A stretch of 20,521 nt of DNA from a virus. Below the pieces are notes generated by a model. The model was not told the DNA's origin, did not search any database, and was given only the letters and a program-made list of their open reading frames with translations. The stretch lies in the UHGV virus genome UHGV-0255412; one strand, written 5' to 3'. Numbering within the stretch: the stretch's first letter is position 1; the number at the start of each line of letters is the position of its first letter. The translations under genes and the position numbers were made by a program. Positions 2,221 through 20,521 of the stretch are shown here, in pieces.

Positions 2221-3180
2221 ATGAAAATTTGTATCGACGACGGCTCCACCAACATCAAGCTGGCATGGACTGAGAACGGCGAACGCCGCAACGCCATCAG
2301 CCCGAACAGCTTCAAGTCGGAATGGTCTGCGCCGTTCGGTGGCACGCAGCCCGCGAACTACATGCTTGATGGCGTGCGCTATGGTTTTGATCCGGTCAGC
2401 GATCGCTTTGTCCAGACGACCGACACGCAATACCAATACAGCGATGTGAATGTCATTGCCATTCATCACGCGCTGGTCAAATCAGGCATCACGCCACAGG
2501 AGGTGGATGTGGTTGTCACCCTGCCACTGAGCGAGTATTTCGACACAAACGCACAGCCGGACATGGCCAACATCAACCGCAAAAAAGCGAACGTTATGCG
2601 CCCGGTGGAGTACCAGAACGGTGAGGCATTCACTATCCGTAACGTGCGGGTTATGCCTGAATCCATTCCGGCAGGCTTTAAGGCACTGGCTGACATGAGT
2701 CCGTTTGAATCCCTGCTGATTGTGGATTTGGGCGGAACCACGCTGGATGTGGCAAAGGTTCAGGGACAACTGGCAGGTATCAGCCAGGTGTTTTGCGATC
2801 CACACGTAGGCGTTTCCCTGATGGCCGATGCCGTACTGTCGGTGATGGCCACTAACGGTATGCGTACCAGTCACCACATCGCCAATACCATTATCGAACA
2901 TCGCCATGATGAAGCCTGGCTGCGCCAGCACATCCACAATGACGCGCATTACGTCAGCCTGATGGCGGTTATTCGTGAAAAGGAAGAAACACTGAAACAA
3001 CGCGTGATCCGCGCGCTGGCGGGTTTTTCGGGTTACGGGCGGGTGATGGTTGTCGGTGGCGGGGCGGAGATTGTGGCACCCGCTATCCGCGAAGCCTGCG
3101 GAGTTAATGCGACTTTCATCGCGGACGAGGTGCCACAGTTTGCTCTGGTTAATGGGCTGTACGCAATGGACAAGGAGTAA
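2221..3180 (+). CDS. parM: ParM/StbA-family actin-like partition ATPase
   Basis: N-terminus MKICIDDGSTNIKLAW...ISPNSFKSEW...YSDVNVIAIHHAL...EVDVVVTLPL...DLGGTTLDV closely matches my recollection of plasmid R1 ParM (MLVFIDDGSTNIKLQW...). RBS AAGGAA 7 nt upstream of the ATG. 319 aa, typical ParM length. Confidence 0.85.
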   Translation: MKICIDDGSTNIKLAWTENGERRNAISPNSFKSEWSAPFGGTQPANYMLDGVRYGFDPVSDRFVQTTDTQYQYSDVNVIAIHHALVKSGITPQEVDVVVTLPLSEYFDTNAQPDMANINRKKANVMRPVEYQNGEAFTIRNVRVMPESIPAGFKALADMSPFESLLIVDLGGTTLDVAKVQGQLAGISQVFCDPHVGVSLMADAVLSVMATNGMRTSHHIANTIIEHRHDEAWLRQHIHNDAHYVSLMAVIREKEETLKQRVIRALAGFSGYGRVMVVGGGAEIVAPAIREACGVNATFIADEVPQFALVNGLYAMDKE

Positions 3181-3496: not shown

Positions 3497-3503
3497 CACA
3501 ACA

Positions 3504-3523
3504 TCAGGGCGAGTTCGCCCTGA
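3504..3523. terminator. Perfect hairpin (TCAGGGCGA-gt-TCGCCCTGA) between convergent genes; possible bidirectional terminator
   Basis: 9-bp perfect inverted repeat between the parR stop (3496) and the stop of the minus-strand 198-aa gene (3542). No strong T-tract on either side, so terminator function is uncertain. Confidence 0.4.
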
Positions 3524-3541
3524 TGCACAAAGCATGCTAAA

Positions 3542-4138
3542 TCAGAATTTAGTATGCAATTTATCTACCAATCGCTTAGCCTCATTAAGTAGTTTTTGGT
3601 ATTCCCTGCTATCGTTTTCCTGATCTTCATACGCTCGCCGAACACGCCATCGAAGAGCAAGGCATTTTAAATTCCGGTAAAACCTCGGATTACGCTTGCG
3701 GCACTCTTCCATATAAGGTTCAAAATGGACATCAAGAAAGATTAAGGTAGAACCATAAACACGATATAGATACCGCTCATCATACAAACCGTTATTCACG
3801 GCATTAGCACAACGCTCCCACTCATTAAAAATGAGTTTTAATGCTTTTGCTCCATCCGTTTGAGAATATTCCTCTTTTCCCCAATCAGCGATCGGAAAGT
3901 TATGGCGATCCTTATGAATACGTAGCACTTCTGACCACGCATCAACTATGTCCTTGTTACGTTTATATGCAGCCTCGAAATCCAACGAATTTTTTTCGCG
4001 CGACGTTTTTCTTTGATTTCGTATGCTAATCACTGCAATAAGCGCACCCGCAGCTCCTGGATAAAACGTAGGGCTGGATTCCCAAATACTGGAAAAAATT
4101 TTTCCTATATAACTAAGGGCAGAAAGAACTAGATCCAT
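3542..4138 (-). CDS. Hypothetical protein (198 aa) with a hydrophobic N-terminus; candidate accessory or defence cargo
   Basis: Long ORF on the minus strand within a visibly AT-rich segment that contrasts with the GC-rich phage backbone. N-terminal hydrophobic stretches (LVLSALSYIGKIF..., GAAGALIAVISI) suggest a membrane anchor. I recognise no family from the sequence. Confidence 0.6.
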   Translation of the reverse strand: MDLVLSALSYIGKIFSSIWESSPTFYPGAAGALIAVISIRNQRKTSREKNSLDFEAAYKRNKDIVDAWSEVLRIHKDRHNFPIADWGKEEYSQTDGAKALKLIFNEWERCANAVNNGLYDERYLYRVYGSTLIFLDVHFEPYMEECRKRNPRFYRNLKCLALRWRVRRAYEDQENDSREYQKLLNEAKRLVDKLHTKF

Positions 4139-4149
4139 TGTATTTAACC

Positions 4150-4174
4150 ATAAAAAATGGGAGCCAAAGCCCCC
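4150..4174 (-). terminator. Intrinsic-terminator-like hairpin plus U-tract on the minus strand, 12 nt upstream of the 198-aa gene start
   Basis: Minus-strand RNA would read GGGGGC-uuug-GCUCCC (6-bp stem with one G-U pair) followed by AUUUUUUAU. On the plus strand the same stem has an A-C mismatch, so the structure is better on the minus strand. Confidence 0.45.
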
Positions 4175-4206
4175 ATTCTACTGAAACTACTCTAAAAAAA
4201 CAGGAG

Positions 4207-4251
4207 TTAAACGTCCCAGTTTTCTTCGCTATAGATGCGGCGTACGGTCAT
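4207..4251 (-). CDS. Candidate 14-codon leader peptide (MTVRRIYSEENWDV) with a strong Shine-Dalgarno sequence
   Basis: Minus-strand AGGAGA 7 nt upstream of an ATG, then 14 codons and TAA, followed by the terminator-like hairpin and the 198-aa gene. Too short to call from composition alone. Confidence 0.2.
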   Translation of the reverse strand: MTVRRIYSEENWDV

Positions 4252-4491
4252 AGTTAGTCTCCTCTTTTCAATCATTTAAACATCACTAATTTACTTTTAA
4301 CATGGAGATGGTTTTACAGTTGTCAACCACCTCCCCCAAATCTGTTGGGGTAAGCTATCACGCCTACCATACACATACAATGATGAGGCTATATCGTGCA
4401 GCCACACCGACAAGGATAAGTACATCTTCTTCGCTGTCTTTATGTGACCAAATATAGCACATTTGAAGCGATATACATCCTGTAATGATAC

Positions 4492-4518
4492 TGCACAATA
4501 GTGCACAAATTTGCACAA
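4492..4518. repeat. Three direct TGCACAA repeats phased at exactly 10 bp (cTGCACAAta gTGCACAAat tTGCACAAtt)
   Basis: Read directly from the sequence at 4492-4498, 4502-4508 and 4512-4518. Additional copies of the heptamer occur at 4584-4590 and 3524-3530. Confidence 0.6.
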
Positions 4519-4891
4519 TTTTTTTGAACGACTTTTTGCCCTTCCGGCCCGCGTGGCGGCTGGATCCGTCAAGGATCCGTGCGTGCACAAAAAAACACGC
4601 TTTTTCTGCGCGCAGGTGACGGGGGAACAGCCCGCGTTTCAGGGGGTAAATAGCATTCCCTGAACGATGTCGCAGCGACACAACAGAATGGCTGTATCGC
4701 TCACGCTGAGCGTGAAAAAGACGTAAGGTGTTCTGATTTGATGGTATGAAAGGTAAGGCCGTCAAAATCGCACTGAGGCGGCGAGAACATGCAGTCAGCG
4801 CGGCGGGATTGTGTAAGAGTCTGGCCGTCGATGATAGCGATAAGTCGGAAGACGTCGTGAAATTATCTGATTGATACAGGAGCTGGAGAGT

Positions 4892-4916
4892 CGGGGCATA
4901 AATTTTTTATGCCCCG
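4892..4916. repeat. Near-perfect 25-bp palindrome / hairpin (CGGGGCATAAA-ttt-TTTATGCCCCG)
   Basis: 11-bp stem with a 3-nt loop, read directly. No trailing T-tract on either strand, so not a canonical intrinsic terminator. Lies ~100 bp upstream of the 175-aa gene. Confidence 0.5.
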
Positions 4917-5017
4917 GCGAAGCAGCAGACAAGCGAAGCGCGTCAGTGATGCGGCACCTTGCCGACCACACTTCATAAGTGCAAAATACGAGCAAAGAAA
5001 TCAATGGAGGCTGTTCT

Positions 5018-16241: not shown

Positions 16242-16842
16242 TTCACTGTTACCACCATCAGCCAGCAATTTCATGCGTTGTGCCGAAGCCGTCGGAACAC
16301 GCATTACAGACATTCCGGTAGACCTCAACACGCTGTGGTCGCCGGACACCTGCCCGGTGCATCTGCTGCCTTATCTCGCCTGGGCGTTTTCCGTTGACCG
16401 CTGGGATCGCAACTGGCCGGAAGAGACAAAGCGACAGGTAATTCGTGATGCATGGCTGATACACCGACACAAAGGGACCATCAGCGCACTGCGAAGAGCC
16501 GTGGAGCCTCTCGGCTACCTGATTGAAGTAAAGGAGTGGTGGCAACTCAACGAGGAGCCGGGAACATTTCGCATTGTTGTCGGAGTACTTGATCAGGGCA
16601 TCACCGATGAAATGTATCAGGAACTTGAGCGCCTTATTGCGGATGCAAAACCAGTAAGTCGCCATCTGACGGGGCTGGCGATCAGCCTGAGTGTGAACGG
16701 AAAGATTTTCGTTGGTACGGGATGCTATCACGGCGATGCCCTGACGGTTTATCCCTACACCCCGGAGTCCATTATTGTCGAAGGGGATTATTTCCCTGCC
16801 CCGGCCATTCATTTAATTGATAATCTGAGAGTAAACGCATGA
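16234..16842 (+). CDS. I: Baseplate / tail-fibre attachment protein gpI
   Basis: ATG at 16234 overlapping the J stop (track ORF begins at an upstream GTG). Blocks NPDTCP, LLPYLAWAFSVDRWD and ELERLIADAKPVSRHL match recalled P2 I. Confidence 0.85.
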   Translation: MSNSLLPPSASNFMRCAEAVGTRITDIPVDLNTLWSPDTCPVHLLPYLAWAFSVDRWDRNWPEETKRQVIRDAWLIHRHKGTISALRRAVEPLGYLIEVKEWWQLNEEPGTFRIVVGVLDQGITDEMYQELERLIADAKPVSRHLTGLAISLSVNGKIFVGTGCYHGDALTVYPYTPESIIVEGDYFPAPAIHLIDNLRVNA

Positions 16843-18443
16843 CAGTGAAATACTACGCCATTCTGACTAATCAGGGCGCGGCACGACTGGCTAACGCGAC
16901 GATGCTCGGCAGTAAGCTGAATCTGACGCAAATGGCCGTTGGTGATGCAAATGGTGTGTTACCAACACCAGACCCTGCACAAACAAAACTGATTAACCAG
17001 AAACGCATTGCACCGCTGAATCTTCTGAGTGTTGACCCTAACAATCAGAGCCAGATTATTGCGGAACAAATCATCCCTGAAAACGAGGGAGGATTCTGGA
17101 TCCGTGAGATTGGTCTTTATGATGATGAAGGCGTACTTATTGCAGTGGCAAACTGCCCGGAAACGTACAAACCGCAGTTGCAGGAAGGCAGTGGACGCAC
17201 CCAGACTATCCGCATGATTCTGGTTGTCACGAACACCGAAGCCATCACGCTGAAAATCGACCCGTCTGTGGTTCTGGCAACCCGCAAATATGTGGATGAT
17301 AAAATCTCAGAGCACGAACAGTCACGACGTCACCCGGACGCCTCGCTGACCGCAAAAGGCTTTGTTCAACTTAGCAGCGCCACTAAAAGCACGTCTGAAA
17401 CGCTTGCGGCAACGCCAAAGGCTGTTAAGGAGGCATATGACCTGGCTAATGGCAAATACACCGCACAGGACGCTACCACTGCGCGAAAAGGTCTTGTCCA
17501 GCTCAGTAGCGCCACGAACAGCACGTCTGAAACGCTGGCAGCGACACCAAAAGCTGTTAAGGCGGTAATGGATGAAACGAACAAGAAAGCACCATTAAAC
17601 AGCCCGGCACTGACCGGAACGCCAACAACACCAACGGCGGCACAGGGGACTAATAGTACCCAGATCGCAAGCACAGCTTTCGTTATGGCCGCGATTGCCG
17701 CACTTGTAGATTCGTCACCTGATGCACTGAACACGCTGAACGAACTGGCTGCGGCGCTGGGCAATGACCCGAATTTTGCGACCACCATGACTAACGCGCT
17801 TGCGGGTAAGCAACCGAAGGATGCCACCCTGACGGCGCTGGCGGAGCTTGCTACATCAGCAGATAAACTCCCATATTTTACAGGGGCAGATCGTGCCGCG
17901 TTAACCGCGTTGACAAGTGTTGGACGTGCCATTCTTGGTAAAACCAGCACTCAGGGAGTTCTTGATTACCTTGGTTTAGGGGAAGGTTCGGCGCTGCCTG
18001 TTGGTGTGGCCGTTCCATGGCCCTCAGCCACGCTGCCAGCGGGGTGGTTGAAATGTAACGGCGCAGCATTTTCTTCTGAAATGTACCCCAATCTGGCAAA
18101 GGCCTACCCCACCAATAAATTACCGGATTTACGGGGTGAATTTATTCGCGGCTGGGATGACGGACGGGGCGTTGATAATGGGCGCAACCTACTGTCTGCA
18201 CAGTCTGACGCTATTCAGAATATAGTTGGCACTTTTGGGCGTACTCAGCTTTTTAAAGATGTGTTTAATTCAGGACCATTTAGTCAAACTGACTCTATAT
18301 TATCAGTAGGCTTACAACCAACTGAGATCATTGAAGGATATGGTGCTTCTGTATGGACATTCGACGCCTCTCGCTCAGTTCGCACAGCATCTGAAACACG
18401 CCCCCATAACATTGCGTTTAATTACATCGTAAGGGCAGCATGA
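16839..18443 (+). CDS. H: Tail-fibre protein gpH: constant N-terminal part fused in-frame to variable C-terminal cassette 1 (tail-collar-like tip)
   Basis: N-terminus and the duplicated QLSSAT(K/N)STSETLAATPKAVK motif match P2 H. The C-terminal ~150 aa (from GLGEGSALPVGV to NIAFNYIVRAA) belong to a cassette family repeated four more times downstream. Confidence 0.9.
   Translation: MTVKYYAILTNQGAARLANATMLGSKLNLTQMAVGDANGVLPTPDPAQTKLINQKRIAPLNLLSVDPNNQSQIIAEQIIPENEGGFWIREIGLYDDEGVLIAVANCPETYKPQLQEGSGRTQTIRMILVVTNTEAITLKIDPSVVLATRKYVDDKISEHEQSRRHPDASLTAKGFVQLSSATKSTSETLAATPKAVKEAYDLANGKYTAQDATTARKGLVQLSSATNSTSETLAATPKAVKAVMDETNKKAPLNSPALTGTPTTPTAAQGTNSTQIASTAFVMAAIAALVDSSPDALNTLNELAAALGNDPNFATTMTNALAGKQPKDATLTALAELATSADKLPYFTGADRAALTALTSVGRAILGKTSTQGVLDYLGLGEGSALPVGVAVPWPSATLPAGWLKCNGAAFSSEMYPNLAKAYPTNKLPDLRGEFIRGWDDGRGVDNGRNLLSAQSDAIQNIVGTFGRTQLFKDVFNSGPFSQTDSILSVGLQPTEIIEGYGASVWTFDASRSVRTASETRPHNIAFNYIVRAA
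17355..17562 (+). repeat. Internal tandem duplication in gpH (132-bp / 44-aa period; QLSSAT(K/N)STSETLAATPKAVK)
   Basis: Two near-identical units read directly, starting at ~17355 and ~17487; also present in P2 H as I recall. Confidence 0.7.
17959..17984 (+). other. Candidate Hin/Gin/Cin-family crossover site at the constant/variable junction of gpH (TTCTTGATTACCTTGGTTTAGGGGAA)
   Basis: 26 bp with 18/26 identity to hixL as I recall it (TTCTTGAAAACCAAGGTTTTTGATAA), including the TTCTTGA left end, the ACC-NN-GGTTT core and the terminal AA. Sits exactly where cassette homology begins. Confidence 0.5.
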
Positions 18444-18462
18444 AAACGTTGGTTTGGGGGGA
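18437..18462 (+). other. Candidate crossover site at the cassette 1 / cassette 2 junction (AGCATGAAAACGTTGGTTTGGGGGGA)
   Basis: hix-like AAAAC-GTT-GGTTT core spanning the gpH stop codon and the start of the next cassette; the same junction sequence recurs at every cassette boundary. Confidence 0.45.
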
Positions 18463-18930
18463 GGCTCTGCGCTGCCCGTTGGTGTACCTGTTCCATGGCC
18501 CTCAGCCACACCGCCAACGGGGTGGCTAAAATGTAACGGAGCAGCATTTTCTTCTGAAAAGTACCCCAAGCTGGCAAAAGCCTACCCCACCAATAAATTA
18601 CCGGATTTACGGGGTGAATTTATTCGTGGCTGGGATGATGGGCGAGGAATTGATGCAGCACGCGCTTTATTGAGCATTCAAACCGGGATGTTGGAAAAAC
18701 ACCGCCATATTGTTGTAGCTAACGATGGATATGACACAAAGGATGAATGGGAGTTGGCCACGATTTTCAAAAAAACATATACACAAGGCAGGGGGCTTGA
18801 TGCCACAAATACAGGAGGGAGTTTGATTCCATCACCAACGCTTCATTCACGAGGAAGTATTGGTAACACAGGTGGTAGTGAAACCCGCCCCCGCAATATT
18901 GCATTTAACTATATCGTGAGGGCGGCTTAG
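18454..18930 (+). CDS. Silent (promoterless, start-less) alternative tail-fibre C-terminal cassette 2
   Basis: Frame is open from 18433 with no RBS or ATG. First ~68 aa are near-identical to the C-terminal cassette of gpH, the middle is divergent, and the end is the conserved ETRPRNIAFNYIVRAA. Confidence 0.7.
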   Translation: MGGGSALPVGVPVPWPSATPPTGWLKCNGAAFSSEKYPKLAKAYPTNKLPDLRGEFIRGWDDGRGIDAARALLSIQTGMLEKHRHIVVANDGYDTKDEWELATIFKKTYTQGRGLDATNTGGSLIPSPTLHSRGSIGNTGGSETRPRNIAFNYIVRAA

Positions 18931-18936
18931 TTATAT

Positions 18937-19548
18937 TCAACTGGCTGCTGCCAGTGGTATTTCCGGCCAGTTGATATCTGATGCCATGTTTATATCCATT
19001 GCGTTCAGTGCGTCTATATAATCCAGCACGGCGTTAAGCCGGGTGGTTTCTGCCTGCGTCAACTTCCGCCCGGCCTGCAACTTCAACTGAATCAGACTAA
19101 TGGAAGCCATTGCAGTATCAATCAGCGACTGGCGCTGTGTTTCTGCCGCTTCTACTGCGGCGCTATGCTGTGCCTCGGTATCCGTCACCCATTTTTCACC
19201 ATCCCATTTATCGTATGGTGTTAACGGGGCGATAGTGGTTGTATTTTTCGGGTAGTCACCCAGCGTCGTGATTTCTTCGGTGTTTCCCGTATCAGTGCTA
19301 TAGACGGTTTCACCACGATGATCTGGCGTATACTCCCATGAATTTAAATTCTCCGAACGGCGGATAGCATAGCCCGCTTTATGTGCGCCCGGGGCATCTA
19401 AACAGGAATTTGCCGGAATACCGACACCCGCAGCAAGATATTCAGTTGATTCGGAAATATATTCCCGTGTCTCACCATCGTAGTTATAAACGACGATGTT
19501 TCCTGCCTGTACGGCAATAAGGTCATCATTTAATATCGCGTTATTCAT
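18937..19548 (-). CDS. Tail-fibre assembly chaperone (gpG / Tfa / Mu U-like)
   Basis: 203 aa on the minus strand, start overlapping the stop of cassette 3 (TAATG). C-terminal ...DALNAMDINMASDINWPEIP resembles the conserved Tfa C-terminus. Confidence 0.8.
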   Translation of the reverse strand: MNNAILNDDLIAVQAGNIVVYNYDGETREYISESTEYLAAGVGIPANSCLDAPGAHKAGYAIRRSENLNSWEYTPDHRGETVYSTDTGNTEEITTLGDYPKNTTTIAPLTPYDKWDGEKWVTDTEAQHSAAVEAAETQRQSLIDTAMASISLIQLKLQAGRKLTQAETTRLNAVLDYIDALNAMDINMASDINWPEIPLAAAS

Positions 19549-20006
19549 TATGCGGTTCTCACAATATAATTGAAGGCAATATTGCGTGGGCGGGTTTCAT
19601 TCCCCTCTGAGGATTCCGTTCTGTATTGACTGGTAAATCTACCGTTAATTGCACCTTGCCGGACGGCGTTATCTGTCGACAACAGACTATCCCCTCCTTT
19701 GTCATTTGGCACCAGTACCGTGTTATCCCACGCATCCCATGACCGAATATTATGATAATGACTTCCTGTTAACCACCCCTGCATGCTTAAGATGCCCCTT
19801 CCGGCATCCACCCCTCGCCCATCATCCCAGCCACGAATAAATTCACCCCGTAAATCCGGTAATTTATTGGTGGGGTAGGCCTTTGCCAGTCTGGGATACA
19901 TTTCAGAAGAAAATGCTGCGCCGTTACATTTCAGCCACCCCGTTGGCGGCGTGGCTGAGGGCCATGGAACGGGCACACCAACGGGCAGCGCAGAGCCTTC
20001 CCCCAA
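19548..20006 (-). CDS. Alternative tail-fibre C-terminal cassette 3 (inverted orientation), translationally coupled to the assembly chaperone
   Basis: Same conserved 5' (GEGSALPVGVPVPWPSATPPTGWLKCNGAAFSSE...LPDLRGEFIRGWDDGRG) and 3' (ETRPRNIAFNYIVRTA) ends with a distinct middle. No ATG; the frame is open back to the previous cassette's stop. Confidence 0.75.
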   Translation of the reverse strand: MGEGSALPVGVPVPWPSATPPTGWLKCNGAAFSSEMYPRLAKAYPTNKLPDLRGEFIRGWDDGRGVDAGRGILSMQGWLTGSHYHNIRSWDAWDNTVLVPNDKGGDSLLSTDNAVRQGAINGRFTSQYRTESSEGNETRPRNIAFNYIVRTA

Positions 20007-20023
20007 ACCAACGTTTTTATGCT
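19998..20023 (-). other. Candidate crossover site at the cassette 4 / cassette 3 junction (inverted orientation)
   Basis: Reverse complement reads AGCATAAAAACGTTGGTTTGGGGGAA, the same hix-like junction as at 18437-18462. Confidence 0.45.
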
Positions 20024-20445
20024 GCCCTCACGATGTAATTAAACGCAATATTACGAGGACGAATGGTTACATAATTAACCCCATCACCTCGTGAAGGCCC
20101 CGCAAATGAAAAACGGGAAAAGCCTGGTTGGTTAGAAACAATTTGGTCATAGTTATTGATTGAATGACCAGACCCAATGTCGAAATTACCTCCGTAATGA
20201 GAAAAACTTGTACCATCCTGCCCAGAAAGCAGGGTACGTCCCGCATCAATCCCGCGCCCATCATCCCAGCCACGGATAAACTCACCCCGTAAATCCGGTA
20301 ATTTTAACGTTGGGTAAGCCTTTGCCAGTTTGGGGTATTTTTCAGAAGAAAATGCTGCTCCGTTACATTTTAGCCACCCCGTTGGCGGTGTGGCTGAGGG
20401 CCATGGAACAGGTACACCAACGGGCAGCGCAGAGCCTTCCCCCAA
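20017..20445 (-). CDS. Alternative tail-fibre C-terminal cassette 4 (inverted orientation)
   Basis: Conserved 5' and 3' ends as in the other cassettes, with a different central region (…GQDGTSFSHYGGNFDIGSGHSINNYDQ…). Confidence 0.75.
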   Translation of the reverse strand: MGEGSALPVGVPVPWPSATPPTGWLKCNGAAFSSEKYPKLAKAYPTLKLPDLRGEFIRGWDDGRGIDAGRTLLSGQDGTSFSHYGGNFDIGSGHSINNYDQIVSNQPGFSRFSFAGPSRGDGVNYVTIRPRNIAFNYIVRAA

Positions 20446-20462
20446 ACCAACGTTTTCATGCT
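20437..20462 (-). other. Candidate crossover site at the cassette 5 / cassette 4 junction (inverted orientation)
   Basis: Reverse complement reads ...GCATGAAAACGTTGGTTTGGGGGAAGG, a hix-like core. Confidence 0.45.
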
Positions 20463-20521
20463 GCCCTTACGATGTAATTAAACGCAATGTTATGGGGGCG
20501 TGTTTCAGATGCTGTGCGAAC
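20457..20521 (-). CDS. 3' end of a fifth tail-fibre C-terminal cassette (inverted), truncated by the window edge
   Basis: Reverse complement of 20457-20521 translates to VRTASETRPHNIAFNYIVRAA*, identical to the C-terminus of gpH cassette 1. Confidence 0.6.

Follow-up and report, generated by a model that had tools for sequence, protein, structure and literature searches.

The 20,521-nucleotide (nt) stretch of the UHGV virus genome UHGV-0255412 that we analyzed (hereafter, the window) is the late region of a P2-like prophage, and at its end the tail-fiber gene H runs into a Min-type (p15B-like) multiple-inversion array of alternative fiber tips that holds a single tail-fiber assembly chaperone gene, tfa. 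The chaperone gene is probably shared by the tips of this array, flipping with one invertible module and standing in the sense direction only when it is co-oriented with H. In the mechanism we propose, a serine invertase of the Gin/Pin family would recombine a site in H with inverted 26-base-pair (bp) sites at the 5' ends of five tip cassettes (c1 to c5), and inversion would fuse different receptor-binding collar tips to the constant part of H. The single tfa gene is part of the invertible module c3→tfa←c2, and its direction therefore depends on which isomer is present. Read-through of the array from the late V-W-J-I-H unit would transcribe it only when co-oriented (24 of 48 modeled isomers), such that states like that of the window would be chaperone-poor unless a weak minus-strand source exists. 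In the other states, which always include those with c2 fused to H, tfa opposes the late operon, and this raises the question of how the fibers are then assembled.

Layout of the tips, the chaperone gene and the crossover sites

The open reading frame (ORF) of H (16839-18443, plus strand) encodes 534 amino acids (aa). Its constant part (16839..17972, plus strand) lies outside the invertible DNA, consists of an N-terminal tail-collar fiber domain and fiber repeats (PF12571, E-value 1.7e-62; PF03406, E-value 8.7e-41), and is 97% identical to the constant part (Hconst) of Escherichia coli prophages. Within it, at 17354-17565, two 80-nt direct repeats that are 83% identical and 132 nt apart correspond to two Phage_fiber_2 repeats. 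The in-frame tip of H is cassette c1 (17973..18443, plus strand), a collar domain whose variable insert spans 74 aa. It is followed by the silent cassette c2 (18451..18930, plus strand), which points in the same direction as H and holds a 158-aa Collar ORF (18454-18930), and then by tfa (18937-19548, minus strand, 203 aa), which in this state is antisense to the H operon. Beyond tfa lie the inverted cassette c3 (19548..20009, minus strand; Collar ORF 19548-20006), the inverted and silent cassette c4 (20017..20448, minus strand; Collar ORF 20017-20445), and the 3' end of cassette c5 (20456..20521, minus strand), of which the window end leaves only 66 bases.

Cassette c2 and tfa are arranged tail to tail with their stop codons 6 nt apart, and on the minus strand the TAA stop of c3 (19550-19548) shares one base with the ATG of tfa (19548-19546), giving TAATG. 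A chaperone gene on the same strand as its tip and directly after it is therefore what c3 has in the window state, but not the expressed c1. A first-pass annotation of the sequence had described this layout, with the sole chaperone gene coupled to an inverted cassette by TAATG, and the ORFs, domains and repeats confirm it. The same annotation offered, as one option, that in the sequenced state the expressed tip may have no co-transcribed chaperone; as a description this is true, given that the H-c1 transcript cannot carry sense tfa.

The Collar family PF07484 matches H and every cassette (E-values 1e-13 to 1e-15). The tip formed by c1 also matches the short tail fiber structure 9cuy (E-value 5.5e-25) and the T4 gp37 tip 2xgf (E-value 6.1e-15) in the PDB. 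All cassettes combine the collar scaffold with a C-terminal strand, (E)TRPRNIAFNYIVRAA, and the same strand, NIAFNYIVR, ends the T4 gp37 tip 2xgf. The plan of a collar tip is thus present in full, with a conserved N-terminal part, a variable insert and the final strand NIAFNYIVR, and the tip inserts are only 18–27% identical among themselves.

The boundary between the constant and variable parts of H is TTCTTGATTACC-TT-GGTTTAGGGGAA, an imperfect 26-bp palindrome, and every cassette opens with ...AAAACG-TT-GGTTTGGGGGAAGG... Site alignment places the crossover site inside H, s0, at 17959..17984 on the plus strand (ttcttgattacc-TT-ggtttaggggaa, an imperfect 26-bp palindrome of Din type), and further sites at the 5' ends of c2 (18437..18462, plus strand; agcatgaaaacg-TT-ggtttgggggga), c3 (19998..20023, minus strand) and c4 (20437..20462, minus strand). 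These four sites have the half-site GGTTTGGGGGAA and a central TT in common; those ahead of c1 and c2 are oriented plus and those ahead of c3 and c4 minus. There are at least four crossover sites within the window and five or six in its relatives, and in all isomers the constant-to-variable junction falls at s0. The sites are of the Gin/Pin/Min type and appear to resemble the gix, hix and pix consensus sequences. Moreover, inverted repeats of 209–285 nt with 82–94% identity connect the plus- and minus-strand cassettes, and long direct and inverted repeats join the 5' parts of the cassettes, a pattern that is not due to chance. All full-length relatives encode a 199-aa serine recombinase about 70 bp past the last cassette and in the same direction as H, with the Pfam domains Resolvase and HTH_7 and a match to the structure of the Gin invertase (PDB 4m6f, E-value 3.3e-91).

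Isomers in complete genomes, in culture and in a model

The same prophage is present in complete E. coli genomes at about 96% identity, and its cassettes are found there in a range of orders. EC9 carries H-c1, c2, tfa(-), c3(-), c4(-), which is the state of the window (H-c1 / c2 tfa' c3' / c4' c5', with primes for inverted elements). PE15 reads H-c1, c3, tfa(+), c2(-), c4(-), c1(-), APEC37 reads H-c1, c4, c3, tfa(+), c2(-), c1(-), and STEC1590 has the short form H-c2, tfa(-), c3(-). For E2348/69, the record NC_011601 reads H-c4, c2, tfa(-), c3(-), and the record CP059840.2 reads H-c3, tfa(+), c2(-), c4(-). The same cassette set is seen as three different isomers. A single inversion, of the module [c2 tfa' c3'], separates the window from PE15 with its H-c1, c3, tfa(+), and a single inversion of c2 through c4 separates it from APEC37.

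The c5 fragment of the window matches residues 136-156 of c1 at 100%. In full-length relatives c5 (window 20456-20521; locus L004, 8621-9088; locus L003, 5010-5441) is a second copy of c1 that adjoins the invertase gene and points the opposite way from the copy on H; PE15 and APEC37 accordingly each have two c1 copies, in the same places as c1 and c5 of the window. Since c5 is an inverted copy of c1, inversion of the whole array regenerates H-c1. In all four mapped intact genomes with four or five cassettes, c1 is the tip fused to H.

We surveyed complete E. coli genomes with two synthetic queries, in which tfa was attached in one or the other direction to the H constant part, requiring at least 95% identity and full coverage; this design counts only genomes in which no more than about 1.4 kb separates tfa from that part. 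The survey returned 16 records with tfa(+) and 18 with tfa(-). Inversion at the E2348/69 locus has been documented in detail, with large (~2.2 kb) and small (~1.8 kb) inversions at three inverted repeats and four coexisting variants that were detected and quantified by whole-genome sequencing and validated by polymerase chain reaction, under the name of shufflon (Goldberg, 2014; PMC4272514).

We also enumerated isomers breadth-first under the assumption that inverted sites recombine freely, which yields a model and not a measurement. The output was 48 isomers, with tfa co-oriented with H in 24 and antisense in 24, and the window state is one of these approximately 48 interconvertible forms. 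When c3 is fused to H in the model, tfa is always (+), and when c2 is fused to H, tfa is always (-); the isomers with c1, c4 or c5 on H are split half and half. One assembly shows only one of many isomers, and a backward chaperone gene is therefore not a phage defect, which matters for annotation and for host-range prediction.

The cassette order of the window might be imagined to be an assembly artefact of mixed isomers that corresponds to no real molecule, as loci of this kind are heterogeneous in culture and some assemblies of the locus are damaged or inflated (14EC047 with frameshifts, the plasmid pMTY9975 with 17 or more cassettes). We consider this highly improbable. The collinear order H-c1, c2, tfa(-), c3(-), c4(-) recurs in the independent complete genome EC9, 2022E04-002 gives an equivalent full-length search match, and the order is a legal isomer in the model. 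In E. coli 14EC047 itself (locus L005, 5001-8602), the locus and its neighboring genes are annotated as frameshifted fragments, which look like the product of sequencing error or of a mixed-state consensus rather than of decay.

The chaperone, its partner tips and the source of its transcript

The product of tfa matches the chaperone family Caudo_TAP (PF02413) over residues 78-198 (E-value 1.2e-33; 116.5 bits against a cut-off of 22.1); it has no sequence match in the PDB, and NCBIfam has no named family for tfa or H. To count copies, we built a hidden Markov model (HMM) from 36 tfa homologues and searched the window and full-length prophages with it, each translated in all six frames; for PE15, the 45 kb searched held its annotated prophage genes, ogr through the replication gene. 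The HMM has a single match in the window (E-value 6e-90) and a single match in each related prophage, with the next best E-value above 4. A second tfa gene further downstream, a possibility left by the first-pass annotation, was thus found by the HMM neither in the window nor in its full-length relatives, whose annotation agrees; past the array, the order in these relatives is invertase gene, terminator, gene U.

If the single tfa copy were specific to c3, with c1, c2 and c4 folding without Tfa, only states that express c3 would be sensitive to the direction of tfa. Translational coupling to c3 alone through TAATG is consistent with this, as is the constant association of H-c3 with tfa(+) in the model, and specificity for c3 would explain why one copy suffices. 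The partners of tfa elsewhere make such specificity improbable. Across about 40 related loci (Escherichia, Kluyvera, Shigella, Photorhabdus, Pantoea, Erwinia and others), nearly every one has a collar tip followed immediately by tfa with an overlapping or near-overlapping start, and the tips are of many insert types; the species-representative genomes searched with tfa, which served for this pairing analysis, gave distant relatives only (83% identity or less). Five of the partners have a close tfa, with an N-domain 74–82% and a C-domain 75–84% identical to that of the window, and in four of these five the tip insert is only 23–28% identical to that of c3, as between unrelated inserts; the N-domain remains 74–79% identical where the partner inserts cannot be aligned. 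In E. coli JP538, which has the same backbone (I 100%, Hconst 97%, U 100%), a 96%-identical c2 is fused to H with a co-oriented tfa directly after it, and the same arrangement is found with an 86%-identical c2 in Escherichia sp. MOD1-EC7003. A Kluyvera prophage pairs a c1-class tip with a 78%-identical tfa. Furthermore, the collar fold and the NIAFNYIVR C-terminus of the tips are those of T4 gp37, which requires chaperones, and Tfa proteins have been described as binding the distal end of the fiber through their N-domain in a modular model (PMC9608196).

From these comparisons, Tfa is probably one generic chaperone for all collar tips, and it would act on the conserved collar scaffold rather than on the variable insert. 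The suggestion in the first-pass annotation that c1 and c2 need no chaperone is unlikely to be correct, because JP538 has H-c2 followed by a co-oriented tfa and because close tfa homologues pair with unrelated inserts; the Kluyvera pairing of a c1-class tip with tfa likewise disfavors it. Its other suggestion, of a shared chaperone transcribed from elsewhere, fares well in its first half, for which the comparative evidence speaks, and poorly in its second, as promoter-like sites are not in excess and relatives have a terminator at the end of the F operon. More broadly, a single Tfa subfamily may, on this comparison, be able to serve a wide range of collar tips, which would be useful for tip swapping in P2, P1 and tailocin scaffolds.

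A search for terminators inside the array gave 5 weak matches against 5.2 expected, none of them convincing. With no terminator in the array, the late V-W-J-I-H transcript should run through the cassettes into the co-oriented invertase gene, and we infer that this read-through carries sense tfa only when tfa is (+). The alternative is a supply of Tfa independent of inversion, in which a promoter on the other strand (by read-through from the convergent F operon, or within the array or the invertase region) would serve all 48 isomers. The FI-FII-E-E'-T-U operon is indeed inverted relative to the P2 order, and in all full-length relatives it converges on the array and the H operon, with D and ogr keeping their orientation (locus L001, 10268-15619; locus L006, 12928-20073). 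Also in line with an independent supply are the conservation of c2 despite its permanent convergence with tfa, the existence of the two-cassette form H-c2 / tfa' c3', a weak Shine-Dalgarno-like GAGA of tfa's own 8 nt upstream of its start, and one minus-strand sigma-70-like match (20328-20301) upstream of c3 and tfa.

Several observations nevertheless make this alternative unlikely. Promoter-like matches are no commoner than in shuffled sequence, with sigma-70-like matches at chance level (7 vs 5.4 and 6 vs 6.0 in shuffles), and the match at 20328 is missing from the scan of EC9. The P2 late-promoter motif TGT-N12-ACA occurs 3 times against 4.9 expected, with no match near the array, although the P/O intergenic region of this phage also has no exact TGT-N12-ACA and Ogr-type promoters are therefore not reliably scannable. 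We thus found no support for an inversion-independent promoter, which the first-pass annotation had raised as a possible source of minus-strand tfa RNA. In relatives, the gap between U and the invertase gene contains a hairpin with a 12-bp stem and T runs on both strands, that is, a bidirectional terminator (-15.6 and -16.9 kcal/mol; z-scores -3.2 and -4.3; no shuffle folds as well). Moreover, the convergent F operon also accompanies ordinary two-tfa segments (Kluyvera, O157:H7, JP538), and in pMTY1586, a P1-like single-tfa array and the only such plasmid whose flank was examined, co-oriented holin genes lie past the invertase gene and no convergent late operon is annotated. There is therefore no comparative link between the convergent F operon and single-tfa arrays. 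Read-through from the F operon, at first an attractive source of tfa RNA, was weakened by the strong bidirectional terminator together with this absent association. D diverges from FI across about 157 bp, and the convergent F operon is seen in the E. coli lineage and in the Kluyvera prophage (locus L009).

Against a shared chaperone gene expressed purely by read-through stand several facts, most of which concern c2. Under pure read-through, the permanent convergence of c2 and tfa would keep H-c2 from ever meeting the chaperone, and this fiber could not be assembled. Cassette c2 is nonetheless intact in all genomes, with 21 synonymous and 4 non-synonymous differences between the window and STEC1590 and a ratio of non-synonymous to synonymous substitution rates (dN/dS) of about 0.07 overall, and the minimal form H-c2 / tfa' c3' persists in four genomes. 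In addition, c5 is cut by the end of the window, past which lie its remainder and the invertase gene. The conservation of c2 and the two-cassette form hint at some inversion-independent supply, or at independence of c2 from Tfa in this setting. Selection on c2 is purifying overall, with too few differences in the variable insert within the module context to decide for that part. Cassette c2 also occurs elsewhere, in JP538 and as a free cassette in P1-like arrays; exchange with these contexts could maintain it without function here, and its conservation is therefore not decisive. STEC1590 (locus L056, 3501-6190) has two cassettes and a single tfa, such that co-transcription of the chaperone is impossible in one of its two states; judged by survey span, the form H-c2 / tfa(-) c3(-) is also present in STEC1589, 266917_2 and GF66.2.

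A stronger proposal built on the shared, flipping chaperone gene, which we put forward only tentatively, is that half of the isomers, including every H-c2 state, are chaperone-off, and that the array has either inversion-independent tfa expression or an on/off phase switch for infectious particles. If true, either of these would give Min-type arrays a property that is undiscussed in the literature we examined.

Other prophage genes and comparison with known inversion systems

The gene content of the window comprises replication protein A, ParM, portal Q, terminase P, O, N, M, lysis genes, R, S, V, W, J, I and H. The gene for ParM, an actin-like plasmid segregation protein (2221-3180; StbA_N, E-value 1.8e-82), adjoins replication gene A, and PE15 has ParM and a partition/stability gene in the same place. 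Between the partition genes and portal gene Q lies a stretch of low G+C content (3500-5000; 0.41) with a DUF4760 gene (3542-4138, minus strand) and small unknown ORFs. At this position PE15 has an S8 peptidase and an AAA ATPase, and this different content suggests that the stretch is a variable cargo spot; the low-GC genes had no PADLOC match.

The first-pass annotation did not recognize that the array is of a kind already known, the Min-type multiple-inversion system, for which inversion experiments on E2348/69 have been published. The Min region of p15B has several inverted crossover sites, overlapping invertible segments, a constant 5' part with many 3' tips, and an adjacent serine invertase of the Din family; this multiple-inversion system was reportedly described by Sandmeier, Iida and Arber in 1990-92. 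The array studied here is like the Min region in having more than two sites, overlapping segments and many isomers. It differs in that its replicon is a P2-like prophage, with P2 gene H in place of P1 gene S as the constant part, and in that it has five cassettes, two of which are c1 copies.

Related arrays are found on IncY P1-like plasmids, of which 239 records match; the best cover 83–92% of the array at 86–90% nucleotide identity. pMTY1586 has the same cassettes (amino-acid identity 96% for c1 and c2, 91% for c3), a single tfa and the same coupled and convergent module, and in the IncY P1-like arrays one tfa serves as the only copy for six or more cassettes. In the P1-like plasmid pMTY9975 (locus L052, 1-10205) there are 17 or more cassettes, several with identical proteins, and one tfa, which reflects either real amplification or an assembly inflated by mixed isomers.

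The P2-like shufflon of the EPEC strain E2348/69 has the same phage backbone (I 100%, Hconst 97%) and the same module of c2, tfa and c3. It differs in having three cassettes (c4, c2, c3) and hence four isomers, whereas the five cassettes of the window give 48 in the model; the chaperone is not discussed in the study of that locus (Goldberg, 2014; PMC4272514). The Mu G and P1 C segments and the P2-like two-state segments (phage pro483, O157:H7 prophages) share with our array a Gin-family invertase, a constant part with variable tips, and a tfa directly after the tip. These segments carry a pair of tips with one co-oriented tfa apiece (tip tfa / tfa' tip'), and the chaperone is co-transcribed in both states; the array of the window, in contrast, has one tfa for all its cassettes, which is antisense in half of the isomers.

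The FRphi shufflon of Enterobacter, to judge by its published description, swaps three C-terminal tips by means of a gin recombinase, with isoforms at 50/25/25%, as a four-isomer topology predicts (PMC13418256, 2026). The same paper reports loci with up to six paralogues and finds the test host to be infected by just one of the locked isoforms; the chaperone is unmentioned (PMC13418256). Finally, the R64 shufflon resembles the array in exchanging the C-terminal ends of a single protein through multiple inversions, but it relies on the tyrosine recombinase Rci and sfx sites and acts on the PilV adhesin, whereas the relatives of the window array encode a serine invertase. With a serine invertase in place of Rci, our array is a shufflon by analogy only, the resemblance being functional.

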